Assembly (NCBI GenBank): GCA_965648905.1
Contig: CBFGIT010000008.1
Coordinates: 22,255-86,254, forward strand
Source: a candidate division WOR-3 bacterium
GTDB lineage: Bacteria; Hydrothermota; Tepidihabitantia; Tepidihabitantales; Tepidihabitantaceae
Length of the DNA: 64,000 nucleotides
Reading direction: 5' to 3'
Position 1 is the first letter of the stretch, and the number at the start of each line of letters is the position of its first letter. Shown in pieces: positions 36,171 through 63,939 of the stretch. Under the pieces are notes generated by a model that saw only the letters and a program-made list of their open reading frames with translations, made no database searches and was not told the origin of the DNA. A program made the position numbers and the translations under genes.

Positions 36171-36614
36171 GGTACTTGCGGTGAATTGTACTCATAGACA
36201 CCTGTATGCAGTCTATCACCACCATGCCTGCCTGTCAACTTCGGCTTTTGAGAATCACTAAGTCCGTAAGTCTTAGCCAAATAATATATTAACATATCCT
36301 CTGATACTGATGCTCGGTTCAGTACGCTTCTGGCCAGGCATCTGCTGCAGTCCGTGTCCCGCACCGTGTTCCGTGTCAGGCATCCTGCACTTTGAAGCCT
36401 GCATTCTGCCCTGGCAGCAATAGCGCGCTGGCCTGGTCATTGAGGCTTGGGCTTTACCACTCCCCTCCATCCGCCCTCTGCTGCCCGACACCCTACGACT
36501 CGGTCATTGCAGTCTGCACCATGCCCTCCGTGCTTGACTTCACCGCGCCCCGGCCTATATTTCGGGTCTATGCGGAATGGCGAGCAGCCCGACCAGAACC
36601 AGCTCATCCGGCGC

Positions 36615-36800
36615 GATGTTCTACCCTATGCCGAGGGCGTCTGTGTGAACGAGAGCAAGACCAAGATAGGCTACGAAATCAGCTTCAACCGCTACTTCTA
36701 CAAACCCCAGCCGCTTCGGACGCTCGAACAAATCCGCGCCGACATCCTGGCGTTGGAGAAGGAAACGGAAGGACTGCTGGACGAGATAGTCGGAAAGTGA
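36615..36800 (+). pseudogene. C-terminal remnant of a type I restriction-modification methyltransferase (HsdM-like) gene
   Basis: Only the last ~60 codons of ORF 36447..36800 look like protein: DVLPYAEGVCVNESKTKIGYEISFNRYFYKPQPLRTLEQIRADILALEKETEGLLDEIVGK, which matches the HsdM C-terminal NRYFY...LEEI pattern. The upstream part of the ORF is low-complexity non-protein-like. Confidence 0.45.
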
Positions 36801-37497
36801 TGAATGATGAGTGATGAATTATGAGCGGTGAAAGATGAGTACTCAACGCGGACAGAAGCTGACAGAAAGGACGCGGGAGTTCGCGCTACGGGTGATTCGC
36901 CTGTGCTCGGAACTGCCCAAATCTACGGTTGCTCAAGTTATCGGCAAGCAGATGCTCCGGGCCGGGACATCGGTTGGCGCGCACTATCGCGAAGCCGTGC
37001 GCAGTCGGTCTGACGCAGAGTTTGTCAGCAAGCTCGAAGGCGCCCTGCAGGAAGCAGAGGAGACGCGCTACTGGCTTGAACTTCTGACAGCCGAGCGACT
37101 GGGTCCGCAGTCGGAACTTGCGGCCCTAGCGTCCGAGATTGATGAACTTGCCGCCATGCTCGTCGCCAGCGTCAAAACCGTCAAGGCACGAACGAAGCGA
37201 TAAACTCGGAATGATAAGCGATGAATTCAGCCGACAGAGAACGCGGCGGCCTGTAGGTTCGCTTCTTGCTCATCCTCAATCATTCCCTGCTCCTCGGATG
37301 ACCCGCCGCAACCGATGAATACCCCGCGTTCGTCACAAGAAATTCATCGCCTGTCTTCTCGCATCGTATGAGCACTCAGCACCCATCATTCATCACTCCG
37401 CGCTCTCCTTCAGCCTCCCCCACTCAGAACTCATCACTCATTACTCATCGTTCTCCTTCTTCCCCCACTCATAATTCATCATTCATAACTCATCACT
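36796..37497. repeat. Imperfect ~30-bp inverted repeats (27/30) flanking four-helix-bundle gene copy 2, plus additional degenerate TCATCACTCAT-type copies at 37385-37450
   Basis: Left arm 36796-36825 AGTGATGAATGATGAGTGATGAATTATGAG. Right arm 37468-37497 CTCATAATTCATCATTCATAACTCATCACT. Confidence 0.6.
36835..37203 (+). CDS. Four-helix-bundle protein (TIGR02436 / 23S rRNA intervening-sequence protein family), copy 2
   Basis: GKQMLRAGTSVGAHYREAVRSRSDAEFVSKLEGALQEAEETRYWLELL. Clear paralog of 14653..15021. Confidence 0.8.
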   Translation: MSTQRGQKLTERTREFALRVIRLCSELPKSTVAQVIGKQMLRAGTSVGAHYREAVRSRSDAEFVSKLEGALQEAEETRYWLELLTAERLGPQSELAALASEIDELAAMLVASVKTVKARTKR

Positions 37498-38047
37498 CTC
37501 CTCTCCGCCCCTACCCTACCTACAAGCCCTCCGGCATGCCGTGGCTGGCTGGCTGACACCGTGTTCGACCTGACCTACAACAAAGAAGTCGCGTAGCGAC
37601 GCCCGGTCTCAGTTCGACTCGGTCAGCCTCTCGCTAACAGCAACTGAGAGCTCCTTTGCCCCTGAACAGGACCGTAGGCCGTGCTATGAGCAATGCCTGC
37701 AGTCGTGCTTCTCGAAGTACCGGCTTGAGTGCTTGGCAGCGTGACACCAGAAGTCACTTATGCTGCACTGGCTGGTGTCACATTGCCTGTACTCGGAGCA
37801 GTTCAGGACCAGATGACGACTGCTTGGACGGTGGCGATCACGCTGGACGTGCCATTAGGATTGCCGAGACGATGGAATCGAAAGATGACACCGGCCGTTC
37901 CGAATGGAATGACATTGGGAATGCTCTAGGGAACCGCCTGCCGGACGTCCCCAATCCTCCAGTTCAGCAGTCACTTCTTTCGCATAACCGATTGACCGCT
38001 AAACCGTTAGCCGCAATCAGCCGTATGTCGCCCAGTTAGACGACTTG

Positions 38048-45764: not shown

Positions 45765-48629
45765 CTACCTTACCAGCACGAACCGGGCAACGTGGCGATG
45801 GAAGGTGGTGTGGAGGACCGCGGCGTACAGGCCGGCCGCAACCGGTTTGCCGGCCTGATTCCTGCCGTCCCAGAACGCGCCCGCTGCTTCAAGCGTGGCC
45901 TTGTCGCCCGACGCACCGTACCGACCCGGCCGCGACAGCACTGCTCCGTTCAGGACCGACTCATACACCATCACACCGGATGACGAGTAGACCCTGAGCT
46001 TGGCATCGGTAACCGGACGGGTCAGATTGATTGGAAAGTAGACCCGGTTGTGCTCAGTCGGGACAAAAGGATTCGGGAAGATCGTGCCGATGCCGTCACC
46101 GACGATATCAGGAGTCTCTGGCCCAGGCGGATAAAGCCGGTACACCGAATCGACCCTGGGCACGCCGTAACCGAAGGTGCAGCTCTTCACCGAACGCGTG
46201 GCAGTCGCGAAGAGCACGGCTTTCACCGACTCGGCACTCCACTGTGGTCGTACTTCTTTCACCAGCGCACACACGCCGGCCACCAGAGCGGTCGCACAAG
46301 AAGTACCGACCGCGCCGTCCAGCCAGTCGAGCGAATCCGGAGCGACCACTGCCACTGTGTCGCACAGCGCCACCAGGTCAGGCTTAGTGCGGCCGTCCGC
46401 CGTTGGTCCGGTTCCGGTGTGGCGCCACGGAGTCAGGTTTTTCTGGACTCCGCCGACCGTGATAACATTCTCAGCATCGCCCGGTGTGACGATGTAGGGC
46501 CCGGGCCAGGGGTTGACCGTCGTATCCCGGTTGCCCATGGCCGTGACCACGACCACGCCGCGGCGGGCAGCAAGGTCGGCGGCAATTGAGACCAGCGCGG
46601 TCTTGCCGTCGAGCTGGCTCGGTGAGTACCAGCCGCGATAACCGAGCGAAGACGAGACGATATCAGCACCGATGCGCTCGGCCCACTCCAGCGCCTCAAT
46701 ATAGGTATCTTCTTCCATGTTGTACTCGTAGAAACGGTTGGAGCGAACCTTGTACAGCTCGGTCTTGGCAACAATCAGGTCAACACCAGGTGCAATACCG
46801 ACCAGCCCGCCCTGCTGCCAGCCGGCAATGATTGACGCCATGCGTGTACCGTGGTCCGGCTGCTGAGGTGAGAACTTGGCCGTATCTGAATCTTCCCAGA
46901 CCGTGTTGTCGTCTCCGCGCTTGAACCAGACCGCCAGTTCACTCTGACCCGTCCCGACCAGTGCCGGCATGTAGCAGAACCCGGCAGTGTCGAGTGGCCC
47001 GGTCCTGCTCCAGGATACTCCGTCGTCAGTTGACTGCGCACGGTAGAGCAATCCGCCGGTCTCATAGAGTACCGAAAGCCGGCCCGCCTGGTCCTGCCTG
47101 GGACTGAAACTGCCGACCGACAGCGTGCTCTCAGCCACAAGACCGGCCTGAGCCCAGTTCTGCCCCCGGTCGCGCGATACCAGCAGGGCAAGACGCACCA
47201 GGCCGTTTTCCGATTCATTCTTGTAGTAAAGAGACAGGTTGTCACCATTCTGCGTTAGGCGGCAGGCTCGCGCCCCAACAGCGGCCAGCTCACGACCGGG
47301 TCCAAAACTCACGCCGCCGTCGGTCGAACTGAACTGCAGTAGCCGACCGGACTTGTACCCGTTGGCAACGATGTCAATGCTGCCGCCCGGTCCGACCGCG
47401 ACCTGAGGGTATGCCACCGGCTCGCCAGCACTGAACACATTCGCCAGCAGCGGCTCGGGCGCGGGCATGACAATCGATGCTTTCCAGAGCACCAGCAGCG
47501 ATTCAGCCCGGACCGCTGTGACATAGAGCGTGTCCCCGGCAACCGCGATGCCGGGAAAGCGTCCTGAACCCAGGTACATGCTCGTCCCATACCAGTCTGT
47601 GCCGATGTACCAACCGAGATAGACATTAGCACTGGCATCGGCTCCGGCCGGGGCCAGCTCGTCATAGACAAGGTAGGAAGTGAACCGGTTCGTCGCAAAG
47701 TTGAGATTCTCACAGGTGTTGTCGAACGGCCTGGACCGGACAATCGGGGTCGGGTCTGACCAGGTTCGGCCGGCATCAGTGGTGTGGCAGGTGAAGATGA
47801 CCCGGACCGGCGGGTTGTAGCCATAGGCGAAGCTGTCGGCAACAAAGGCCAGTAGACAGGTATCGATTGAGCCGTTGACCGTGGTGAGTGCCGGGTCGCG
47901 CACCAGACCTAAGTAGCGCAGGTTGTCAATCTGCCCGGGCTGCCAGTTGTCGGAACGGGCCGAGAAGAAGTTGTCGCCCGACAGGAAGTCGTGCTGCTTG
48001 TGGATGCGCAGTCGGGCGACCGCCCGGTTGCGCAGCTTAAGACCGGTATCAAACAGGGCAAGCTTGACGTTCGCGCCCGAGAAACCGCGGAACGCGACCT
48101 CAGGCACACCCATCATCTGCGCCTGGTCAAAGGACGAGCCGTAGAACCGTCGGTATTCCGCGGTGTCGGCCCGGCGCGAATCGAGCGGTTCGAACCGGGC
48201 AAGAGGGAACGTCGGGACGCCGTCGGCCGCATGGACCCCCACCGCCTTGACGTCGTAGACGAACGGCAGCGCGTAGACCGCCGGGACAACTGAGGCCGGC
48301 AGGATGAAGCTCGCCGCATTGAGCCAGTTCGACACTGTCCGCCGACGACCGCCCAGGGCCTCAATTGCACGGACATACTGCTCGCGCACCGGCAGGTCGT
48401 CGAAGTCGAATCCGCCAATCAACTCACGACCACGGCGCGCCGCCACATCCGGCGCGGCCTGAGCCGCAACTGCACTCCGTGCCCGAAGGTAGTCAGCTTC
48501 GCTGAACACGCCCTTGTCCGTGAAGAAGACCCAGACGTGGTTGGTCCGAAGCACCGGGACCTGGGTCTTGTCCGGCACGCGCACCAGGCTTGTGCCGAGA
48601 AGCAGCAGGAAAACAATTGCCGGGTTCAT
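45765..48629 (-). CDS. Secreted subtilisin-like serine peptidase (S8) with T9SS-type C-terminal domain, second copy
   Basis: Signal peptide MNPAIVFLLLLGTSLV. Asp (ALFDTGL), His (DHGTRMASIIAG) and Ser (GTSCATALVAG) motifs. C-terminal ...GLYAAVLHTTFHRHVARFVLVR. Confidence 0.8.
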   Translation of the reverse strand: MNPAIVFLLLLGTSLVRVPDKTQVPVLRTNHVWVFFTDKGVFSEADYLRARSAVAAQAAPDVAARRGRELIGGFDFDDLPVREQYVRAIEALGGRRRTVSNWLNAASFILPASVVPAVYALPFVYDVKAVGVHAADGVPTFPLARFEPLDSRRADTAEYRRFYGSSFDQAQMMGVPEVAFRGFSGANVKLALFDTGLKLRNRAVARLRIHKQHDFLSGDNFFSARSDNWQPGQIDNLRYLGLVRDPALTTVNGSIDTCLLAFVADSFAYGYNPPVRVIFTCHTTDAGRTWSDPTPIVRSRPFDNTCENLNFATNRFTSYLVYDELAPAGADASANVYLGWYIGTDWYGTSMYLGSGRFPGIAVAGDTLYVTAVRAESLLVLWKASIVMPAPEPLLANVFSAGEPVAYPQVAVGPGGSIDIVANGYKSGRLLQFSSTDGGVSFGPGRELAAVGARACRLTQNGDNLSLYYKNESENGLVRLALLVSRDRGQNWAQAGLVAESTLSVGSFSPRQDQAGRLSVLYETGGLLYRAQSTDDGVSWSRTGPLDTAGFCYMPALVGTGQSELAVWFKRGDDNTVWEDSDTAKFSPQQPDHGTRMASIIAGWQQGGLVGIAPGVDLIVAKTELYKVRSNRFYEYNMEEDTYIEALEWAERIGADIVSSSLGYRGWYSPSQLDGKTALVSIAADLAARRGVVVVTAMGNRDTTVNPWPGPYIVTPGDAENVITVGGVQKNLTPWRHTGTGPTADGRTKPDLVALCDTVAVVAPDSLDWLDGAVGTSCATALVAGVCALVKEVRPQWSAESVKAVLFATATRSVKSCTFGYGVPRVDSVYRLYPPGPETPDIVGDGIGTIFPNPFVPTEHNRVYFPINLTRPVTDAKLRVYSSSGVMVYESVLNGAVLSRPGRYGASGDKATLEAAGAFWDGRNQAGKPVAAGLYAAVLHTTFHRHVARFVLVR

Positions 48630-48943: not shown

Positions 48944-48973
48944 GGGCCTCCCTTGACCAGGCAGAAAAGAAAG

Positions 48974-49047
48974 TACCCCGCGCCAGAATTGAACTGGCAA
49001 CCCACGGATTAAGAATCCGTTGCTCTACCAAGTTGAGCTAGCGGGGC
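48974..49047 (-). tRNA. tRNA-Lys (anticodon CTT)
   Basis: Hand-folded 74-nt cloverleaf: acceptor GCCCCGC/GCGGGGT, anticodon loop TTCTTAA, T-loop TTCAATT. No encoded CCA. Confidence 0.8.
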
Positions 49048-49067
49048 ACAAGTGCAGTACCACGCGA

Positions 49068-49141
49068 CGCGCCCGGCGCGACTCGAACGCGCAACCTGCG
49101 GGTTCGAAGCCCGACGCTCTGTCCAGTTGAGCTACGGGCGC
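49068..49141 (-). tRNA. tRNA-Arg (anticodon TCG)
   Basis: 74-nt cloverleaf: acceptor GCGCCCG/CGGGCGC, anticodon loop CTTCGAA, T-arm GCGCG-TTCGAGT-CGCGC. One U-C mismatch at the base of the anticodon stem. Confidence 0.75.
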
Positions 49142-49235
49142 TGCTAGAGACGCCTCCGGCCGGTCGCCGGACGTGAAGTGTAACGAAATCCGGCCAGGAT
49201 GCAACCATCGCCGGCGCTGACGAACACAACACGAG

Positions 49236-49310
49236 GGTGAGTGAGGGGACTTGAACCCCCAACATCCTGAGCCACAGTCAGGTACTCTAACCAGTTGAGC
49301 TACACTCACC
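49236..49310 (-). tRNA. tRNA-His (anticodon GTG) with encoded G-1
   Basis: 75 nt: extra 5' G pairing with C73, acceptor GTGAGTG/CACTCAC, anticodon loop CTGTGGC. Confidence 0.85.
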
Positions 49311-50950: not shown

Positions 50951-51628
50951 TTGGCTGCTCAAGAACCCGCCGTGATCCTGAGAGCCGTCACCCGGGACCC
51001 GGAAGTCATTGCTCTGGTCGAGGAGGCGGACCGGCAGCTCGCCACGCTCGGCTACACCGAACACGGCCCCCGGCATGCCCGGCTCGTGGCCAAGAACGCC
51101 AAGGCGGTTCTCACCGCGCTGGGATTCGATGAACGCGAAGCCGAGCTGGCCGCGATCGCCGGGTACCTGCACGACATCGGCAACGTCGTCAATCGGGACC
51201 AGCACGAACGCACGAGCGCCCTCCTGGCGCGCGATGTCCTGCTGCGTCTGAGAATGGGCTACGGCGAGGCGGCCCAGGTCATGGCCGCCATCGGTAACCA
51301 CCATGAGGAAGGCGGCAACCCGGTTTCCAACATCTCATCGGCGCTGATTCTTGCCGACAAGGCTGACGTCCACCGGAGCCGGGTGCGCAATCCCGAGCTG
51401 GTGAAGTTCGACATTCACGACCGCGTCAACTATGCGGTGAAGAAATCCGGGCTGAGCGTAGACAAGGCCGGCCGCCGCATCACCTTCGACCTGCAGGTTG
51501 ATACCGCCATCGCGCCGGTGATGGAGTACTTCGAGATCTTCCTCGCCCGGATGCTCATCTCGCGCCGGGCCGCCGACTTCCTTGAGTGCCGCTTCGAGCT
51601 GGTCATCAACGGCACGCGCCTGGTCTAA
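50951..51628 (+). CDS. HD-domain phosphohydrolase-family protein
   Basis: H...HD metal-binding motif (HGPRHA...AGYLHDIGN) and a downstream His (IGNHHEEG). Confidence 0.7.
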   Translation: MAAQEPAVILRAVTRDPEVIALVEEADRQLATLGYTEHGPRHARLVAKNAKAVLTALGFDEREAELAAIAGYLHDIGNVVNRDQHERTSALLARDVLLRLRMGYGEAAQVMAAIGNHHEEGGNPVSNISSALILADKADVHRSRVRNPELVKFDIHDRVNYAVKKSGLSVDKAGRRITFDLQVDTAIAPVMEYFEIFLARMLISRRAADFLECRFELVINGTRLV

Positions 51629-51634
51629 CGCAGC

Positions 51635-53182
51635 CTAGCCGGTCCGATAGACCGAATCGAGCACGGTTCCGTCCACCCACTTGACGACGGCCACAACCTG
51701 GTCAGACAGCTTCGGTCGCGCCGGCCGACCGCACATCCGCTCAATCTCAGCCTTCATCTCCCCGATGTCTCTTATCGGCAACCCCGATCCTTTGATCGCA
51801 TCGCGCAGGTCGGTCCGTCGCGGGTTGATAGCGATGCCCAGCTCGGTGACGACCACGTCGACCAGTTCGCCCGGCCCGACCAACGTGGTGACCCGGTCTA
51901 CGATTATCGGCAGCCGGTCACGCATGGCCGGAACCGCAAGGATAACGCACTTGGCGAAAAGACAGTTCTGCCAGCCGCCGATGCCATGCCGCAGCCTGCC
52001 GTCAGAATGAGTCACCACGTTGGCGTTGAACTCGGTATCGACCTCGGTCGCCGACAGCACAGCAACGTCGAGCAGGTTTATGTAGTTACCCTTGGCATGG
52101 TAGTTGTAGCTCACGAGCGGTGAAATCGACACGTGCCCCCGGTTGACCGCAATCGAGCGCACCGCCTCAAGGTCGAACGCCTGGCCGTCCACCAGCGCTG
52201 GGGCCAGTCCCTGTTCGAGCATCCGGACCAGGTAACGGGTTGTGCCGCCATGTATCCATCCGGCCTTGACACCTTCAGCCTTCATCATGTCGGCAAGGTA
52301 CACGGCAAACGCCAGTGAGATACCACCTGCTCCGCCCTGAAAACTGAACCCGTCCTTCAAGATTCCCGACTCCCTGATGAATCGGGCGACTAGCTCAGCA
52401 ATGTAGAGCCGGTCCGGCGAGCGGGTGACTTCGGTCGTACCGGACATGATTTTCGCCGGGTTGCCGATTGAGTCCTGTTGAACCACAAAGTCGACGTGGG
52501 TTCCGTTGAGCTGAAATGGAATGCAAGGAAACGGAACCAGGTTGTTGGTGACAATCACCGTGCGGTCCGCGTACATCGTGTCTGCGACCGCATAGCCGAG
52601 TACACCGCAGGCAGAGTCACCCTTGATACCGTTGGCATTACCGAACTTGTCTGCCGCCGGCGCGGCCAGGACCGCGATGTCGATGTGAATCTCGCCGTCC
52701 TGAATCGCCTGGGCCCGGCCACCGTGCGACCGCAGAACCCCGAGCCCGCGCATCCGACCCTGGGTGCAGTAATCGCCGAGCGGGCCGTTGAGGCTGCCTT
52801 CGATGTGATGAATGACACCGGCGTCAAGGTGCTTCATGATCGGAGCATGGCATGGAAACGCCGCGGACGGGTACCAGACCAAATCCTTCAGTCCCATCTC
52901 GGCGCAGATGTCAAAGAGCTGCAAAGGCAGGGTGTCGCCGTCGCGGAAGTGATGGTGCGTGGAAATGCACATGCCGTCACGGATGCCGCACTTCTCAAGC
53001 GCAGTGCGCAAGTCCGGCACGGTCTTGTCACCGTTGTCCGGGTAGTCGATACAGGTCGGAATCTGGGGACAGGCCTTGCGCCCCGAAGGCCGATGCTTGC
53101 CCACGCCGGCAAACGGAACCGCGGGTCTGCCATTGACTTCAGTCGGGACCTTTCGGCCCAGCGCGTTCTCAACGAGCTTCAT
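51635..53182 (-). CDS. citF: Citrate lyase alpha subunit-like (citrate CoA-transferase, CitF family)
   Basis: 515 aa CitF-family protein with the two CoA-transferase-like halves. Confidence 0.8.
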   Translation of the reverse strand: MKLVENALGRKVPTEVNGRPAVPFAGVGKHRPSGRKACPQIPTCIDYPDNGDKTVPDLRTALEKCGIRDGMCISTHHHFRDGDTLPLQLFDICAEMGLKDLVWYPSAAFPCHAPIMKHLDAGVIHHIEGSLNGPLGDYCTQGRMRGLGVLRSHGGRAQAIQDGEIHIDIAVLAAPAADKFGNANGIKGDSACGVLGYAVADTMYADRTVIVTNNLVPFPCIPFQLNGTHVDFVVQQDSIGNPAKIMSGTTEVTRSPDRLYIAELVARFIRESGILKDGFSFQGGAGGISLAFAVYLADMMKAEGVKAGWIHGGTTRYLVRMLEQGLAPALVDGQAFDLEAVRSIAVNRGHVSISPLVSYNYHAKGNYINLLDVAVLSATEVDTEFNANVVTHSDGRLRHGIGGWQNCLFAKCVILAVPAMRDRLPIIVDRVTTLVGPGELVDVVVTELGIAINPRRTDLRDAIKGSGLPIRDIGEMKAEIERMCGRPARPKLSDQVVAVVKWVDGTVLDSVYRTG

Positions 53183-54375
53183 GCACTCTCCTTGTCCCAG
53201 CCCGAAACCAGCCGTCCCAGCTTCTCGGCCAGTTCGACCGTGCGCAGGCAGCGCTTCACCACTGGTGCGTCAACCATCTTCGAGCCGACCGCAACCGCGC
53301 CATGACCCTGAGCCCGAGCCTTGCGATAAGCCAGCACCACTTTCCTTGCCTGCTCAACCTCGTCGACCGAAGGCGTGAATGCCTCATTCACCACCGGTAT
53401 CTGACGCGGGTGGACGCAGCCCTTGCCTTCAAACCCGAACTCGCGGGCAACGCGGCAACTGGCCGCCAGTCCTTCGAGGTCATCGACGTTACCGTAGACC
53501 GTATCTATCGGCTGGACCCCGGCCGCCCGGGCTGCATTCACGACCTGGGACCGGGCCCAGACCGTCTCAAGCCCGGCTTGGGTTTTACTTGCGCCGGTGT
53601 CGGCCAGGTAGTCTTCCATTCCCCAGGTCAGGGCTGCGACCCGTTCCGATGCACGGGCAATCCTAGCCGCTTCGAACATACCCTGCGCGGTCTCGATAAT
53701 CGGCATCAACCACACCTCAGTTGAGGCCTGCTTCAATCGCCGGTCCAACTCCTTGATATCGTCCTCAACCTCGCACTTGGGCACAAGTATCAGGTTCGCA
53801 CCCGCCCTGACCAGCGTATCCAGCTCATCCAGGCCGCGCGGCAACTGGTTGACGCGCACCATCCGTTCACAGTCTCCAAAGTCCACGACCCGCAGGGCAT
53901 TGCGGACAAGAACGAGCGCCGCGTCTTTCTCTTCAGGTGGCACCGAATCCTCCAGGTCAAGAATCACCGCGTCTGCGCCGTGGATTCGCGCGTTGACCAT
54001 GAACCGTGCCTCATTGCCTGGCAGATAGAGCCGCGACCGGCGCCAGTGGTCGCGGGCCGAAGGCCGGGCAAAGGTCGGGCCAGCCTCAGGCAGCCATTCC
54101 TTGACTGCCTGGCCCGGCTTTGCCCGCCGAACTGCAGCTTCAAGCCGGGCCATGATAACAAACGGCAGCGCGCCTCTGTCCTCCACCTGCACCTTCGCGT
54201 GCTTGACGCCAAAGAACTCAAGCCCTTCCCTCGCCAGTGCTCTAATACTCTCCCCGTACATCGCCTCGACTTTGCTCTTCACGTCAAGCTGAATGCCGCC
54301 CGACTTCTCCAGCTCGACCGAGACCCAGACGTCGCTTCGGACCCCTTCGCCGCGCAGTCCTGCCTGGCCGGTCAT
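53179..54375 (-). CDS. Fused citrate-lyase acyl-carrier (CitD-like, N-terminal ~95 aa) and citryl-CoA/citramalyl-CoA lyase beta subunit (CitE, HpcH/HpaI aldolase fold)
   Basis: N-terminus aligns to CitD (DRGALPFVIMARLEAAVRRA vs E. coli DKGALDCILRARLEA). Remainder is CitE-like (RSRLYLPGN...DLED). ATGA overlap with the citF-like gene. Confidence 0.75.
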   Translation of the reverse strand: MTGQAGLRGEGVRSDVWVSVELEKSGGIQLDVKSKVEAMYGESIRALAREGLEFFGVKHAKVQVEDRGALPFVIMARLEAAVRRAKPGQAVKEWLPEAGPTFARPSARDHWRRSRLYLPGNEARFMVNARIHGADAVILDLEDSVPPEEKDAALVLVRNALRVVDFGDCERMVRVNQLPRGLDELDTLVRAGANLILVPKCEVEDDIKELDRRLKQASTEVWLMPIIETAQGMFEAARIARASERVAALTWGMEDYLADTGASKTQAGLETVWARSQVVNAARAAGVQPIDTVYGNVDDLEGLAASCRVAREFGFEGKGCVHPRQIPVVNEAFTPSVDEVEQARKVVLAYRKARAQGHGAVAVGSKMVDAPVVKRCLRTVELAEKLGRLVSGWDKESA

Positions 54376-54376
54376 G

Positions 54377-54871
54377 CTAGGCTCCTGCCTTGCGCGCGGC
54401 CAGCTTGCGCCGCGTGAACTCCAGGAGTCCGCCTGCCTCGCAGATCGCGAGAATCTCCTGAGGCAGCTTCGGGAAGGTATAGGTCTTGTCTCCCACCTTT
54501 ATTGTCCCTGCGGCCGCATCCAGCTCAACCGCCATTCCCGGCTCGTACGCATCGACCGCGTCCGGAGCCTCGACCAGAAGCAACCCCTGGTTGATGGCGG
54601 CCCGGTAGAAGATGCGGGCAAAACTCCGGGCAACAATTGCCTGCACACCCACGGCCTTGAGTCCGACAACCGGCTGCTCCCGCGACGACCCGCATCCGAA
54701 GTTCTTGCCTGCCATCACGATGTCGCCCGGCTGCACCGCCTTGGCAAACTCCGGGTCAAGGTCCTCAAGCAGATGCGGCTTAATCTCCTCCGGCTTCGAG
54801 CAGGTATAGGTGTACTTGCCCGGAAAGAGCATGTCGGTATTGATATCGTCACCATACTTCCAGACTCTCAT
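54377..54871 (-). CDS. leuD: Aconitase-family hydro-lyase small subunit (LeuD/HACN-small, archaeal type)
   Basis: 164 aa. GDDINTDMLFPGKY...GKNFGCGSSREQ is the LeuD swivel-domain signature. Confidence 0.85.
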   Translation of the reverse strand: MRVWKYGDDINTDMLFPGKYTYTCSKPEEIKPHLLEDLDPEFAKAVQPGDIVMAGKNFGCGSSREQPVVGLKAVGVQAIVARSFARIFYRAAINQGLLLVEAPDAVDAYEPGMAVELDAAAGTIKVGDKTYTFPKLPQEILAICEAGGLLEFTRRKLAARKAGA

Positions 54872-54956
54872 ACTTCACCTCCACAGGCAATGCCGGTCGG
54901 CTCGGTCAGCTCTGGCTTCTGCATTCTGGCTTCTGGATTCTGCCTACGTCCTGCCA

Positions 54957-56219
54957 TTACCCCACCTTTCTCGGGTCGGTTATCATCCCGGTGATGGCCG
55001 AAGCGGCCACGGTCGCGGGCGAGGCAAGATAAATCTCTGCATCCTTGCAGCCCATCCGGCCCTTGAAGTTGCGGTTCGAGGTCGAAATGCACCTTTCGCC
55101 TGGAGCCAGACACCCCTGATGCGCACCAAGACACGGCCCGCACCCGGGCGGCAGGAGCACTGCGCCGGCGGCCACGAGAGTCTGGATGTCACCAGCGTCA
55201 AGTGATCGCTCCAGCTCGGCCCGCGACGCGGGCAGGACCAGGAGCCGCGTGCGCGGGTGAACCTTCTTGCCCCGAAGGACACGTGCGGCCAAAGCAAGGT
55301 CTGATGCCCGGCCATTCGTGCAGGTGCCGACTAAGCACTGCTGCACCTCGGTTCCGGCGAGTTCAGTCACCGGCTTGTACTTGTCCACCTTGTGGGGCAG
55401 AGCCACAGCCGGCACAATGCTGTCCAGGTCGAACCTCAGTTCCTGCCGGTAATTCGCACCCTCGTCTGCCCACTCTGCGCTCCACGAACTTTCAGCCACA
55501 CCAATGGACTGAAGATACCCCTTGGTCACTTCATCCACCGGGAACACAGCATTCTTCGCCCCCATCTCCACGCCCATATTGGCAATCACGAACCGGTCGT
55601 CAACCGACAACGAGCCCAGGTCGCCCCAGTACTCGACCGAGCAGTAGTCTGCCCCGTCTGCGCCGACCTTGCCGACGATGGTCAGCACCAGGTCCTTGGC
55701 GGTCACCATGTCGCCCAATTTGCCCCGCAGCACAATCCTGATTGACTCCGGCACCTTGAACCAAGTCTCGCCGGTCATAAGCAAGGCCGCAGCCTCGGTC
55801 CGGTCAATCCCGGTGGCAAGAGCGTTCACCGCGCCGTACGAACACGTGTGCGAGTCTGACCCGACCGCCAGCATCCCAGGCAGTACCAGCCCCTTCTCAA
55901 CCATCACTTGATGACACACTCCGGTTCCGACGTCAAAGAAGTGCTTGATCCCGTACCTCTGCACAAACTCGCGTATCTTCTTGTGGCTTGTTGCGGTCTT
56001 CTCATCTGATGCCGGTATCACATGGTCGAGCACGACTACCGGCTGATTCGGGTCGGCCACGCCGTACTCAGCAAGGTCCTTGCTGACCTTGTCGGTAATG
56101 GCCGCAGCATTGTCGTGCATCAGAAGCCGGTCCGGCTTACAGGTCACGAGCTCGCCAGCCCGGGCCTGCTTCCTGCCGCCCTTGCGGGCGAGCACTTTCT
56201 CGGCAAATGTCATCGGCAT
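54957..56219 (-). CDS. leuC: Aconitase-family hydro-lyase large subunit (LeuC/HACN-large, archaeal type)
   Basis: 420 aa. MTFAEKVLARK...LLMHDNAAAI. Cys ligands in GTCTNGRASD and LLPPGCGPCLG. Confidence 0.9.
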   Translation of the reverse strand: MPMTFAEKVLARKGGRKQARAGELVTCKPDRLLMHDNAAAITDKVSKDLAEYGVADPNQPVVVLDHVIPASDEKTATSHKKIREFVQRYGIKHFFDVGTGVCHQVMVEKGLVLPGMLAVGSDSHTCSYGAVNALATGIDRTEAAALLMTGETWFKVPESIRIVLRGKLGDMVTAKDLVLTIVGKVGADGADYCSVEYWGDLGSLSVDDRFVIANMGVEMGAKNAVFPVDEVTKGYLQSIGVAESSWSAEWADEGANYRQELRFDLDSIVPAVALPHKVDKYKPVTELAGTEVQQCLVGTCTNGRASDLALAARVLRGKKVHPRTRLLVLPASRAELERSLDAGDIQTLVAAGAVLLPPGCGPCLGAHQGCLAPGERCISTSNRNFKGRMGCKDAEIYLASPATVAASAITGMITDPRKVG

Positions 56220-57008
56220 GATTCCTCACTTGGTTCGATGGTACTCAACTGCCAGATTATAGACAGCCCGGCCCGCACTGCAAGAACGCCAGTTGCCGTT
56301 CGCCTCTCGCCGCCCGCTCCTCGCTTTCCGCCACTTCACATCGTGCGTCCGCCGCCTGCCTCTCACATCCACCTGCTCGCAGATTCGCGTCTTGTTCGCA
56401 CTCTGGCTTCGGCGCTGCCCTGAGGCTCGCTACGAGTCGTGGCTTCAGGCCCGGATTCAAGCGCGGACTCGGACGCGCTCGCCAGCCCGCAACTACCCCT
56501 GCCTCGGCGTACGCTGACTAGTCTGCTGCCTCGCCTGACAGGCTTCGTGAACTCTCAGCCGCAGGTCTGGTCACGGGCGCGAACGGAAAGCATCCTGACC
56601 TTGTGCCTAACCTCTGGCTTGGTAGGGGGAGCGACTCCCGGAGTCACTCCCGTTACCAAAGACAAGAGCAGATACCGAATGTGGCTCGCAGCACTAAGTC
56701 CCGGGACTACGCGGCTTAGGCTCAGTGCCCCGCAGTCTGGAAGCTCGCCGGCATCATTCCTAGGCCCGAGGTTCTGATGCCGCAAGTTGTCGGCCGACAG
56801 CCCAGAGCCGTCAGCATTCACCCCAAAGCCTGGCCCGGCAACTCACCCCGCTGCCCACCGCTCTTCGGTCGCAGTCGAACAGCGGCGGCGTGGTTCGCAC
56901 CCCATCCAAACCACGTCGGGCACATTCGGTTCTGCCAAGCCACAGCGGACGATCGGGAATGCTGACGTAACCCAAGACTCAAGACGCACCGGACTGCTCT
57001 GACAAGGG

Positions 57009-60617: not shown

Positions 60618-62000
60618 GTGGTCGAACTTCTGCGCGTGACCGGCGGGCGTCAGGTCGGCAACGGACCTCAGTTCTTCAGCAGCGTTTCAATCGACACCCG
60701 GACTCTGAAGCCAGGTGATGTCTATTTCGCCCTGCACGGCAAGCGGCTCAACGGACACCAGTTTGTCGGTGACGCGCTCAGGCTCGGAGCGGCCGCGGTC
60801 GTGGTTGACCAGGCCGATGCCGCACCGGACGACTCGCTCGCGATTGTCGTTGACAACACGACTCTGGCTCTGGGTCGGTTTGCCGCGGCTTACCGGGCGA
60901 AGTTCGACATACCGGTCTTTGCAGTCACGGGCAGCAACGGCAAGACCACGACCAAAGAGATGCTGGCCGCAGTTCTCTCGCACCGGCTGCGGACGGTCTA
61001 TGCTCCGGACAGCTTCAACAACGATATCGGCGTGCCGCTGACCGTGCTGAAGCTGAACCACGAGACCCAGGCCGCGGTCTTTGAACTGGAGATGAACGAA
61101 CTCGGCGGCACCGCCCGGCTGGCCCGTATCTGCCAGCCAAAGTATGGCATCATCACGAACATCGGCGACACTCACCTCGAAGCGATGAAGGGCCGACCCG
61201 GGGTCGCGCAGGAGAAAGGCGAACTGCTACAATGTCTACCCAGGCAGGGCGTGGCGATACTCAACGCCGACGACCCGGCGGTCATGGACCTGGCTCATAA
61301 GCACTGGGCCGGCCGGACACTGACATTCGGCCTGGAGCAGCCGGCTGACCTGTGGGCAACCGACATCCGGACCAATGACCTCACCGGTGTGCGATTCAAG
61401 ATTCAGGGGAGGCATCCGGTCTCACTGCGGGTACCGGGAGTCCACAACGTGATGAACGCGCTGGCTGCCTGTGCTGCTTTGGTGGCCAGCGGCACGAGTG
61501 TCGAGAAGGCTCTGGCCGGACTGGATCGGTTCCGCCCCCTGCCCATGCGACTGACTGTTCGCCGCCTGTCTCAGGTAACGCTGATTGACGACAGCTACAA
61601 TGCCAATCCGCAGTCAATGCGAGCCGCACTTGCGGTTCTCGCGGGCAGCGCGTCAGCCGGACACCGGGTGGCGTTCCTCGGCGACATGCTGGAACTGGGC
61701 GAAGCCGCACCTCAACTGCACGAGGAGCTGGGCCGCGAGCTGGCCGGAGCGGTGGACCGAGGCGTGCTCGTTGGCGCAATGGCCGAGCATGTGCTCGTCG
61801 GCGCGGTCGAGGCCGGGATGAACCGGGATGCCTTCGTTCTCGCCGAGGCCAGCGACCGGTTGCCGGACGCGGTGTTTGACATGGTCAGACCCGGGGATAC
61901 AATCCTCGTCAAAGGCTCACGCGCCACAGCCATGGAACTGGTGAGCCAGGAGATTAGCAGACGATATGCAGAAAACAACGTCCAGTCCGTCGGAAGTTGA
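60618..62000 (+). CDS. murF: UDP-MurNAc-pentapeptide synthetase MurF (D-Ala-D-Ala adding); relocated away from the dcw cluster
   Basis: Start set at GTG 60618 (MVELLRVTGGRQV...), matching MurF N-termini. The in-frame 143-codon Arg-rich extension back to ATG 60189 looks non-coding. AVTGSNGKTTTKEML, DDSYNANP. Confidence 0.8.
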   Translation: MVELLRVTGGRQVGNGPQFFSSVSIDTRTLKPGDVYFALHGKRLNGHQFVGDALRLGAAAVVVDQADAAPDDSLAIVVDNTTLALGRFAAAYRAKFDIPVFAVTGSNGKTTTKEMLAAVLSHRLRTVYAPDSFNNDIGVPLTVLKLNHETQAAVFELEMNELGGTARLARICQPKYGIITNIGDTHLEAMKGRPGVAQEKGELLQCLPRQGVAILNADDPAVMDLAHKHWAGRTLTFGLEQPADLWATDIRTNDLTGVRFKIQGRHPVSLRVPGVHNVMNALAACAALVASGTSVEKALAGLDRFRPLPMRLTVRRLSQVTLIDDSYNANPQSMRAALAVLAGSASAGHRVAFLGDMLELGEAAPQLHEELGRELAGAVDRGVLVGAMAEHVLVGAVEAGMNRDAFVLAEASDRLPDAVFDMVRPGDTILVKGSRATAMELVSQEISRRYAENNVQSVGS

Positions 62001-63939
62001 TTCGGTGCCGGCCCGGCCCATCGGCATCACCGACACGACCCTGCGCGATGCCCACCAGTCGCTCTGGGCCACGCGGATGCGTCTGTCCGACATGTTGCCG
62101 GTCCTGGAGCAGATTGACCGGGTCGGTTACTATTCCCTCGAGATGTGGGGCGGGGCGACGTTTGACGTATGTCTGCGCTACCTGAACGAGGACCCCTGGG
62201 AGCGACTGAGCGAAATCCGGCGCCGGGTCAAGAAGACCAAGCTCCAGATGCTGCTGCGCGGCCAGAACGTAGTCGGCTACCGCAACTACCCGGACGACGT
62301 GCTCGAGGAGTTCGTCGCCCGGTCGGCCGACCGCGGCCTGGACATCTACCGCGTGTTCGATGCTCTGAACGATGCCCGCAACCTCGAGCGGGCGATCGAG
62401 TACGTCAAGAAGCACGGCAAGCATGCCCAGGGCACGCTCTGTTATGCCATCAGCCCGGTCCACACCATCGAGTATTTCCTGGCCCGGGCCCGCGAGCAGA
62501 AAGAGATGGGCATCGATTCAATCTGCATCAAGGACATGGCCGGCATCATTGCGCCGTCCATGGCGTATGAGCTGGTGCGGGCACTGAAAGAGGAAATCAG
62601 ATTGCCGGTCCAGCTCCACTGCCACGCCTCAAGCGGCATGGCGGTGGCGAGCTATGTCAAGGCGGCAGAGGCCGGCGTTGACGTCATCGACACTGCGACC
62701 GCACCGCTTGCCTTCATGACCTCGCAGCCGGCGGCCGAGACGATGGTCGCCTGCTTTGCCGGCACGAAATGGGACCCCAAGCTCGACCTGGCGGCGATGG
62801 AACAGGTTGAGCTCCACTTTGAGAAGAACGCGGCCGAGCGGTGTGTCGGCACGAACAAGGTGGTTGACTCGATGGTCATCATCCACCAGATACCAGGAGG
62901 CATGGCTTCGAACCTCCTCTCCCAGCTCCGGGAACAGAAGGCCGAGGACCGGCTGAACGAAGTACTCGAAGAAGTGCCGCGCGTGCGTGAGGACCTGGGC
63001 TACCCGCCGCTGGTGACTCCGACCAGTCAGATCGTCGGGGTTCAGGCGGTGATGAATGTGCTCAGCGGTGACCGGTACAAGCTCGTCCCCAAGGAAGTCA
63101 AGGACTACGTGAAAGGACTCTACGGTCGGCCGCCCGCGCCCATCAGGGAGGCGGTGCTGGCCAAGATTCTGGGCAGCGAGAAGCCGATCAAGGTCCGGCC
63201 CGCTGACCTGCTCGAGCCGGCCATGCCCAGGGTGCGTCGGGAACTCGGTCGCGACCTGGTCGACAAAGAAGAGGATTACATCTCGTACGCCATCTTCCCC
63301 GAGGTGTCGCTCAAATTCTTTAACTGGCGCAAGAACCCGACCCAGAGCCCTGAGCCCAAGCCGGTCCAGGCAAGCACGGCACCGGCCCAGGCCAAGCCAG
63401 CGCCGGTTGTCCATCCTGATGACCCGGTTGTCCGGCGCGTGCGCGGCATGATGGAGCTTGTCACCCAGCACGGCGTGACCGAGTTCGAGTGGCAGCACGA
63501 TGAAGAGAAGGTGCGCATCAGACGCGGCAGTGTGTCCGAACCAGCGCCAGTGTCGGTCGCGCCCCCTGTGGTAACGCCGGCTTCTCCGGCACCCCAGACA
63601 GTACCTTCATCAGCACCGGTCCAGACGGCGCCGACTCAGGCCCGGGAAGCCGGCACCGAGCCGACTCCACCGCGGGAGCCGACCCGGCCCGCGGCCAACA
63701 CCGAAGAAGTGACATCGCCGATGGTCGGGACTTTCTACCTCAGGGCCCGACCCGAGTCACCGCCGTTCATCGAGAAGGGCGACGTGGTCGATGCCGGCTC
63801 AACCCTGTGTATCGTCGAGGCAATGAAGCTGATGAACGAGATCCAGGCCGAGAAGAAGTGCCGGATCGTGGACATCGTGGTTGATGACGGCGAGTCGGTC
63901 GAGTACGGCCAGCCGCTCGTCATCATCGAACCGCTCTAG
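61966..63939 (+). CDS. Biotin-dependent carboxyltransferase 5S subunit with C-terminal biotinyl carrier domain (oxaloacetate decarboxylase alpha / pyruvate carboxylase subunit B-like)
   Basis: N-terminal ITDTTLRDAHQS (HMGL-like TIM barrel). Pro/Ala-rich linker. C-terminal biotinylation site CIVEAMKLMNEI. Confidence 0.85.
   Translation: MQKTTSSPSEVDSVPARPIGITDTTLRDAHQSLWATRMRLSDMLPVLEQIDRVGYYSLEMWGGATFDVCLRYLNEDPWERLSEIRRRVKKTKLQMLLRGQNVVGYRNYPDDVLEEFVARSADRGLDIYRVFDALNDARNLERAIEYVKKHGKHAQGTLCYAISPVHTIEYFLARAREQKEMGIDSICIKDMAGIIAPSMAYELVRALKEEIRLPVQLHCHASSGMAVASYVKAAEAGVDVIDTATAPLAFMTSQPAAETMVACFAGTKWDPKLDLAAMEQVELHFEKNAAERCVGTNKVVDSMVIIHQIPGGMASNLLSQLREQKAEDRLNEVLEEVPRVREDLGYPPLVTPTSQIVGVQAVMNVLSGDRYKLVPKEVKDYVKGLYGRPPAPIREAVLAKILGSEKPIKVRPADLLEPAMPRVRRELGRDLVDKEEDYISYAIFPEVSLKFFNWRKNPTQSPEPKPVQASTAPAQAKPAPVVHPDDPVVRRVRGMMELVTQHGVTEFEWQHDEEKVRIRRGSVSEPAPVSVAPPVVTPASPAPQTVPSSAPVQTAPTQAREAGTEPTPPREPTRPAANTEEVTSPMVGTFYLRARPESPPFIEKGDVVDAGSTLCIVEAMKLMNEIQAEKKCRIVDIVVDDGESVEYGQPLVIIEPL

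Follow-up and report, generated by a model that had tools for sequence, protein, structure and literature searches.

In a 64,000-nucleotide stretch of DNA from a candidate division WOR-3 bacterium (contig CBFGIT010000008.1; hereafter the window), four co-directional genes on the minus strand, between positions 56219 and 51635, bring together an aconitase-family hydro-lyase and a citrate lyase-like enzyme. The first gene of this operon (56219..54957) encodes a LeuC-like protein of 420 residues, the large subunit of a LeuC-type [4Fe-4S] hydro-lyase, and the second (54871..54377) the LeuD-like small subunit of 164 residues. They are followed by the gene for a CitD::CitE fusion of 398 residues (CitDE; 54375..53179) and, in the last position, by that for CitF (53182..51635; 515 residues), the α subunit or acetyl-ACP:citrate ACP-transferase (ACP, acyl carrier protein). 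All four open reading frames (ORFs) were confirmed at exactly the coordinates given in an earlier reading of the DNA (the original prediction), which had, however, listed them in the reverse of their order of transcription; on the minus strand, LeuC comes first.

Translational coupling links the last three genes, as LeuD and CitDE meet in the junction TAG-C-ATG and the start codon of CitF lies over the stop codon of CitDE in an ATGA overlap. LeuC and LeuD are separated by a spacer of 85 nucleotides, with a GGAGG site before LeuD. Upstream of LeuC follow about 600 nucleotides (56220-56817) without a supported ORF; the ORFs of 112 and 151 residues within them match no family. A GAGG ribosome-binding site (56224-56227) stands 4 nucleotides ahead of the ATG of LeuC (56217-56219), and further upstream a promoter-like site on the minus strand (56256..56283), read directly from the sequence, is composed of TTGCAG, a 16-nucleotide spacer and TATAAT. 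We take this site to be a predicted promoter; its -35 hexamer matches the consensus in three of six positions, a consensus promoter scanner did not report it, and a promoter and terminator scan near the operon yielded nothing above shuffled expectation.

The third gene product unites two Pfam domains in one polypeptide, ACP (PF06857, residues 14-85, E-value 1e-18) and HpcH_HpaI (residues 113-323, 2.7e-47), which bears out the view that CitD is here fused to the N-terminus of CitE. It can be divided into a CitD acyl-carrier domain (residues 1-88, about 54112-54375), a conserved linker (residues 89-112, WLPEPGP...RRSRLYLPGNE) and a putative citryl-ACP lyase TIM-barrel, CitE (residues 113-398), the last assigned by Pfam and by fold match. 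The carrier domain passes the NCBIfam equivalog model for citD (TIGR01608) with 66.3 bits against a cut-off of 63.5. For the lyase domain, citE is the top-scoring NCBIfam family, at 252 bits against a cut-off of 443, followed by RipC (170 bits) and malyl-CoA lyase (65 bits); the domain carries a DLEDSV motif and is 36% identical to Escherichia coli CitE. An AlphaFold model of the whole fusion has a mean predicted local distance difference test score (pLDDT) of 93.5 and a predicted template modelling score (pTM) of 0.91. In a fold search with this model, the C-terminal domain superposes on CitE-like lyases, which are the only kind of protein among the 50 matches listed; no carrier-domain structure is found among them.

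The same architecture recurs in more than 100 homologues that contain both domains and share 54-80% identity. They come from metagenome-assembled genomes (MAGs) of WOR-3, Acidobacteriota, Methylomirabilota/Rokubacteria, Planctomycetota, Ignavibacteriaceae and others, and CitF is nearly always the next gene. In an alignment of 44 members, the motif Arg13-Ser14-Asp15 of the carrier domain is 97% conserved, with the codon of the near-invariant Ser14 at 54334-54336 in the window, and the linker is conserved as well. CitF itself matches the Pfam family of that name (PF04223) over its full length with an E-value of 9.5e-136, reaches 493 bits with TIGR01584 (cut-off 501) and is 40% identical to E. 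coli CitF over 463 residues; its matches in the PDB include 2HJ0 (397 bits) and 1XR4 (362 bits). By these family assignments it is the predicted α subunit of a citrate lyase.

The hydro-lyase pair is less easily placed. LeuC matches Pfam Aconitase (3e-97) and LeuD matches Aconitase_C (9e-18), and together they belong to the archaeal-type subfamily (TIGR02086/TIGR02087 in NCBIfam), as had been proposed for the pair of 164 and 420 residues. LeuC passes subfamily models only (PRK00402 with 525 bits, hacA_fam with 515) and stays under every equivalog cut-off, including those of LEU2 (TIGR02083; 444 against 611 bits), HacA_Meth (436 against 550) and the aconitase model PRK07229 (338 against 612). 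The scores with the mitochondrial, AcnA and AcnB aconitase models are far under their cut-offs, and LeuC is not a member of the curated aconitase family (AcnA, AcnB, mitochondrial, PRK07229). Likewise, LeuD scores 178 bits with the subfamily model LEUD_arch and misses the equivalogs leuD (TIGR02084; 154 against 246 bits) and HacB (140-143 against 230). The catalytic equipment is in place: LeuC has the cluster ligands Cys300 (in GTCTNGR) and Cys360/Cys363 (in GCGPCLG), and the catalytic GSSRE of LeuD is intact within GCGSSREQ. Among solved structures, LeuC is equidistant from the homoaconitase (HACN; 4KP2, 364 bits) and the isopropylmalate isomerase (IPMI; 4KP1, 357 bits) of Methanocaldococcus jannaschii; the best match of LeuD is the small subunit of the isopropylmalate/citramalate isomerase of that organism (3VBA, 5e-40).

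LeuD further carries a clade-specific loop, LFPGKYTYTCSK, which we aligned to MJ1277, PH LeuD and MJ1271. Its YTYTCS differs from the YLVY of IPMI and the YLRT of HACN, and the loop is one residue longer. Some 90 orthologues keep it, among them the ones linked to ATP-citrate lyase (see below). In the form LFPG[KR]YTYTC, it is essentially identical in CitDEF-linked, ATP-citrate lyase-linked, Eisenbacteria and archaeal members, which argues for one specificity across the LeuCD clade. Judged by equivalog scores and the missing YLRT loop, the pair would not be a methanogen-type homoaconitase; judged by equivalog scores, the missing YLVY loop and the missing association with leuA/leuB, it would not be a 3-isopropylmalate/citramalate isomerase either. 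Neither the LeuD loop nor the Arg/Lys rule for fungal aconitases (PMC3556520) proved a reliable guide to chain-length specificity, the loop not being alignable residue for residue with mitochondrial aconitase.

With the LeuC of the window, we retrieved 80 metagenome loci and mapped the neighbours by tblastn, complemented by called genes on the contigs. CitDE directly follows LeuD in all 26 loci in which LeuC is at least 69% identical and at least 1.2 kb of sequence is available past LeuD, a linkage that spans WOR-3 and Acidobacteriota. A second aconitase-family gene (Acn2), 33-35% identical to LeuC/LeuD and either split or fused to about 600 residues, precedes the pair in 55 of the 86 scored LeuCD loci. 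Where the upstream sequence suffices, the order is IsoDH-HD-Acn2-LeuC-LeuD-CitDE-CitF, in which IsoDH denotes an isocitrate dehydrogenase (IDH)-like gene and HD the gene of an HD-domain protein of 191 residues; the called genes of a WOR-3 contig read Iso_dh-HD-Aconitase+Aconitase_C-Aconitase-Aconitase_C-ACP/HpcH-CitF-CstA. The window and its closest relative (L010) have the last four genes only. Homologues of leuA, leuB and icd are absent from the window, and leuA/leuB from the annotated related loci. The arrangement differs from the classical citCDEFXG operon in domain content and in the absent accessory genes, as the original prediction had seen. It is no peculiarity of this genome, being standard in WOR-3 and part of Acidobacteriota, and the CitD-CitE fusion has been known since 2012 from Ignavibacterium album (PMC3362086).

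In a sister clade, whose LeuC is 63-67% identical to that of the window, the LeuCD pair is followed by ATP-citrate lyase instead. The order KorA-KorB-IsoDH-HD-Acn2-LeuC-LeuD-AclB-AclA is found in three independent loci, L078, L117 and L118 (4.1-Mb genome). Here, KorA and KorB, upstream of the block, are the two subunits of a 2-oxoacid:ferredoxin oxidoreductase (Kor); AclB comprises ATP-grasp_2 and the ATP-grasp domain of ATP-citrate synthase, and AclA the domains CoA_binding, Ligase_CoA and Citrate_synt. L117 and L118 also contain succinyl-CoA synthetase-like or ADP-forming acyl-CoA synthetase-like genes and an acetyl-CoA hydrolase/transferase gene, to which L117 adds an acetyl-CoA synthetase gene, while in L078 a thiolase gene follows AclA. 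The LeuCD clade is thus located directly upstream of two non-homologous systems that have citrate as their sole common substrate, which suggests that citrate is the substrate in the operon and that the pair has the role of an aconitase.

The position of the pair on its other side is consistent with this role. In the orthologous loci, LeuCD lies between IDH-like and citrate-cleaving genes, of which the window has the citrate-cleaving neighbour only. IsoDH is 32-36% identical to E. coli Icd, keeps Ser113 of Icd together with all catalytic Arg, Tyr, Lys and Asp residues, and has the Icd-type insertion that is absent from LeuB; its top matches in the PDB are isocitrate and homoisocitrate dehydrogenases (HICDHs), before isopropylmalate dehydrogenases (IPMDHs). 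The gene order Kor-IsoDH-(HD)-Acn2-LeuCD-citrate cleavage matches the reductive direction of the tricarboxylic acid (TCA) cycle, a match that is not proof of direction.

Two observations on these clusters may be added. The 191-residue HD protein between the IDH-like gene and Acn2 occurs in clusters of both the CitDEF type and the ATP-citrate lyase type (L034, 5272-5847; L078, 4562-5137; L117, 6588-7163; L118, 6593-7168), and has neither an NCBIfam match at E ≤ 1e-20 nor a sequence match in the PDB. A 5.4-kb metagenome contig (L105) shows a variant order, Acn2-LeuC-LeuD-HD-CitF-IsoDH, and its CitF resembles that of E. coli (44%) more closely than that of the window.

Taken together, homology and gene neighbourhood, on which all functional statements made here rest, lead us to place the operon at the citrate end of a pathway of the TCA type, where an aconitase-type step would be followed by ATP-independent cleavage of citrate; we consider this somewhat better than an even bet, with a probability of about 0.55. 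In the first step, the Fe-S hydro-lyase LeuCD would interconvert isocitrate or cis-aconitate and citrate, acting as an aconitase or as half of one, with the labour possibly divided between LeuCD and Acn2 in the relatives. CitF would then exchange the acetyl group of the carrier thioester for citrate, so that citryl-S-ACP is formed and acetate is set free. Finally, the CitE domain would split citryl-S-ACP to yield oxaloacetate and regenerate acetyl-S-ACP, with the ACP tethered to CitE in one polypeptide. The net reaction would be the conversion of isocitrate or aconitate to oxaloacetate and acetate without expenditure of ATP, and the module would be an ATP-independent counterpart of the aconitase plus ATP-citrate lyase arm of a reductive or branched TCA cycle. 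The original prediction had leaned towards citramalate and mentioned aconitate/citrate only in brackets; it is the bracketed alternative that the evidence favours.

A fused carrier-lyase without CitC, CitX and CitG raises a biochemical question, namely how the carrier is loaded. The genes for these proteins had been noted as not adjacent, and wider searches with the E. coli proteins as queries agree: tblastn at a threshold of 1e-3 found none in the window and 35 loci, and phmmer at E ≤ 1 was equally negative for the window and 118 related loci, a total of 1.24 Mb. In the carrier domain, Ser14 is probably the attachment site of the prosthetic group. A different configuration is seen in a Planctomycetaceae MAG (L013, 6470-9617), where an AMP-binding, acyl-CoA/ACP ligase-like gene takes the place of CitF after CitD::CitE; this could represent a different route to load the carrier domain.

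Several points weigh against the citrate assignment. The TCA context is taken from relatives that are 63-89% identical and not from the window itself, in whose 64 kb no homologue of IsoDH or Acn2 is found anywhere. Of the four proteins, the CitD domain alone reaches an NCBIfam equivalog cut-off. The LeuD loop lacks an Arg where methanogen HACN relies on one (Arg26) for a distal carboxylate, and IsoDH has an Ile in place of Asn115 of Icd. The local absence of citC, citX and citG belongs here as well, as does the fact that the conserved Ser of the fusion aligns one residue after Ser14 of E. coli CitD, the known attachment site (ES-G-D against R-S-D). Moreover, two aconitase-family enzymes per cluster are unusual for citrate and recall the isomerization of homocitrate in fungi (PMC3556520).

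This last point leads to the alternative that survives best, although we consider it unlikely: LeuCD would be a homoaconitase and the lyase would cut homocitrate to 2-oxoglutarate and acetate, in a reversed chain shortening of the 2-oxoadipate/α-aminoadipate type, with the IsoDH of the relatives as a homoisocitrate dehydrogenase. In L019, a fused aconitase-family protein of 657 residues directly upstream of IsoDH-CitDE-CitF passes the homoaconitase equivalog TIGR00139 (737 against 530 bits), and in L012 an incomplete copy that reaches 408 bits precedes CitDE-CitF by about 3.8 kb, but membership in TIGR00139 is a naming rule, not an assay. The loop of the fused protein, GIYPGKYTYIDD, has PGKYTY in common with LeuD of the window, as has the copy in L012, which must be added to the points against citrate. 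The best NCBIfam matches of IsoDH are the AksF homoisocitrate dehydrogenases (258-285 bits, under the cut-off), and Thermus HICDH is among its top PDB matches; yet IsoDH lacks Arg85 of the Thermus enzyme and retains Ser113 of Icd. Fungi do need two aconitase-family enzymes for homocitrate (PMC3556520). The comparative context speaks for citrate, in that the three loci with Kor have, in the same slot, an ATP-citrate lyase with its citrate synthase-like domain, accompanied in L117 and L118 by succinyl-CoA synthetase-like genes. Furthermore, no homologue of citrate lyase or ATP-citrate lyase is known to cleave homocitrate, which we count against this alternative.

Next in order, and likewise improbable in our view, is the route towards which the original prediction leaned: a citraconate/(R)-citramalate isomerase or hydratase would feed a citramalate lyase that forms pyruvate and acetate, and with the dehydrogenase of the relatives this would amount to a reversed citramalate pathway from 2-oxobutyrate. 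Citramalate lyase is indeed a CitDEF-type complex, as the original prediction had said of the clostridial enzyme, but the clostridial genes are accompanied by citCXG (PMC4682846), which are absent from the window and the related loci, and glutamate mutase, methylaspartase and mesaconase are not among the neighbours. The nearest solved small subunit is that of an isopropylmalate/citramalate isomerase (3VBA), but the LeuD loop is not YLVY and the LEU2 and leuD equivalog cut-offs are missed widely. As for IsoDH, it has a hydrophobic Ile-Val at the position of Asn115-Val116 in Icd, where LeuB has Leu-Leu; in sequence ranking, however, it is nearer to IDH and HICDH than to IPMDH. A CstA-type pyruvate/peptide transporter gene after CitF in some WOR-3 loci counts in favour of this route. 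Against it stands the fact that ATP-citrate lyase is interchangeable with CitDE-CitF beside the same LeuCD clade, in a context that further includes Kor, IDH-like and succinyl-CoA synthetase genes.

Least probable is the absence of any coupling, in which LeuCD would be an ordinary isopropylmalate isomerase of leucine and isoleucine synthesis, sharing a transcript with an unrelated citrate-fermentation lyase: public annotation as 3-isopropylmalate dehydratase and the standalone archaeal members of the clade, which lack TCA neighbours, would fit, but the adjacency of LeuD and CitDE in 26 of 26 loci across WOR-3 and Acidobacteriota, the position of the pair between IDH-like and citrate-cleaving genes in two types of cluster, the lack of adjacent leuA and leuB in the window and its annotated relatives, and the unreached equivalog models of LeuC and LeuD all speak against it.

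Returning to citrate as the substrate, a broader and more tentative proposal can be made for the family of loci as a whole, one that we hold to be possible but clearly less probable than the assignment of the operon alone. The clusters may represent a widespread TCA-type module of uncultured phyla (WOR-3, Acidobacteriota and others), in which the aconitase step would be carried out by a distinct LeuCD clade, maybe as a two-enzyme system with Acn2 and alongside the HD protein. A two-polypeptide lyase would replace ATP-citrate lyase in it, so that 2-oxoglutarate would be converted to oxaloacetate and acetate, in an unconventional reverse TCA cycle or in a B12-independent fermentation of glutamate; its tethered carrier would be primed without CitC, CitX and CitG. 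If this is true, the labels '3-isopropylmalate dehydratase' and 'homoaconitate hydratase', now borne by thousands of genes of uncultured bacteria and archaea, would stand for TCA aconitases, and metabolic reconstructions that score such genomes as lacking aconitase or as synthesizing leucine would be wrong. It would also be the first comparative-genomic support for the idea, put forward for I. album and Geobacter bemidjiensis, that an ATP-independent citrate lyase replaces ATP-citrate lyase in a reductive TCA branch. Should the substrate be homocitrate or citramalate instead, the module would embody a new lyase specificity.

Both halves of the operon also occur apart. In the Rokubacteria-type loci L015, L016, L017, L018 and L011, CitDE-CitF is found without LeuCD, next to a TetR regulator, a fused TRAP DctQM transporter, a Zn-dependent dehydrogenase and a thiamine pyrophosphate enzyme; this context suggests catabolic use of the same lyase on an imported acid, which the context does not name. 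The neighbours of CitDE-CitF in Planctomycetota and Bacteroidales (sulfatases, a carbamoyltransferase and similar) are uninformative. Standalone LeuCD pairs, 64-67% identical to that of the window and with the identical loop type, are encoded in L067-L073, L101, L111 and L116. As their neighbours include an archaeosine tRNA-guanine transglycosylase, they suggest archaeal genomes, and the LeuCD clade appears to span both domains.

The surroundings of the operon in the window are made up of housekeeping genes. On one side are IMP dehydrogenase, an S8 peptidase, three tRNAs, a short-chain dehydrogenase/reductase (SDR), a hypothetical gene and an HD-domain gene; on the other are purE, purC, queA, a murF-like gene and a PycB-like biotin enzyme. 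Further off in the window lie a dcw cluster, secY and thrS; the product of the last shares 92-95% identity with proteins of candidate division WOR-3, in keeping with the origin of the DNA. The HD-domain gene (50951-51628, plus strand) is convergent with CitF across a gap of 6 nucleotides and recurs in L010, the closest relative, with the adjoining hypothetical gene and SDR gene beside it. We rejected it as a member of the system, its product not being homologous to the 191-residue HD protein of the clusters beyond the HD motif.

The biotin enzyme, a protein with carboxyltransferase and biotin carboxyl carrier protein domains encoded at 61966..63939 on the plus strand, is present as the original prediction had it, but the connection with oxaloacetate decarboxylase drawn there is weak: it scores 815 bits with the model for pyruvate carboxylase subunit B (cut-off 402) and narrowly misses the OadA equivalog with 726 against 756.5 bits. 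The better description is therefore pyruvate carboxylase subunit B, although a large subunit of the 2-oxoglutarate carboxylase type would fit equally well. We exclude it from the system because four housekeeping genes (purE, purC, queA and the murF-like gene) intervene and no oadB or oadG is visible; the gene that follows it falls past the end of the window.

Elsewhere in the window, the minus strand has three tRNA genes in tandem at 48973-49309, Lys(ctt), Arg(tcg) and His(gtg), which stand between the S8 peptidase and SDR genes and are the only matches to Rfam in the window at the gathering score. A stretch at about 36200-38000 has a lower GC content (0.56), few ORFs and two tandem-repeat arrays, a 14-mer in 3.2 copies (36796-36840) and a 45-mer in 3 copies (37373-37511); it has no match to Rfam at E ≤ 0.01. 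Finally, two very large peptidases of the S8 (subtilisin) family, of 907 and 954 residues, are encoded on the minus strand at 18581-21304 and 45765-48629, which fits a protein-degrading lifestyle.

How does the operon compare with known systems? With the citrate lyase of enterobacteria and lactic acid bacteria (EC 4.1.3.6), encoded by citCDEFXG, it shares homologous α, β and γ functions and presumably the chemistry, that is, acyl exchange and Claisen cleavage on a carrier thioester. Here, however, γ is fused to the N-terminus of β, the operon begins with an aconitase-family pair, and it comprises neither a citrate transporter nor oadGAB. The clostridial citramalate lyase of the methylaspartate pathway (EC 4.1.3.22) is likewise of the CitDEF type, is annotated as citrate lyase and acts on a 2-hydroxy-dicarboxylate. 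It is part of a glutamate fermentation cluster with glutamate mutase, methylaspartase, a mesaconase of the class-I fumarase type and citCXG (PMC4682846), none of which is found here, where the hydratase partner belongs to the aconitase family instead.

For the hydro-lyase, the closest characterized counterparts are the IPMI (MJ0499/MJ1277) and the homoaconitase (MJ1003/MJ1271) of M. jannaschii, which have the same two-subunit LeuCD design, the same Fe-S ligands and the same GSSRE motif; the context of the present pair, as judged from its relatives, is TCA-like rather than one of leucine or coenzyme B biosynthesis. That dehydration and rehydration can be shared out between two enzymes of the aconitase family is known from the homocitrate isomerization of fungi, with Aco2/AcoA and Lys4 (PMC3556520). 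The relatives of the window carry two such enzymes side by side, from other subfamilies and with another predicted substrate, and the window has one of the two.

For the lyase, the same two-polypeptide architecture of CitF (IALB_1146) and a CitE::CitD fusion (IALB_1147) was annotated in the genome of I. album, with the speculation that an ATP-independent lyase could close a reverse TCA cycle of an unconventional kind (Liu et al., 2012; PMC3362086), and an Ignavibacteriaceae locus (L012) was recovered among our homologues with 52% identity. A reverse-TCA role was also proposed for a classical citCDEFXG cluster in G. bemidjiensis (PMC2996986). In contrast to the I. album report, which includes neither a link to LeuCD nor the swap with ATP-citrate lyase, the lyase genes of the window would be co-transcribed with LeuCD. 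In a literature search outside which most subscription journals fell, we found no paper that places the LeuCD clade in TCA clusters, reports how strictly it is tied to the fused lyase, notes the interchange of ATP-citrate lyase and CitDE-CitF, or describes the conserved HD protein. The reductive TCA clusters with ATP-citrate lyase provide a further parallel: in the sister loci, Kor, IDH, the aconitase step and AclBA follow one another in the order of the pathway, and the operon in the window corresponds to its last two steps. Two features set the present system apart from such clusters: the aconitase step would fall to LeuCD-type proteins, two per cluster in the relatives and accompanied by the HD protein, and the cleavage predicted for the window would proceed without ATP and release acetate rather than acetyl-CoA.

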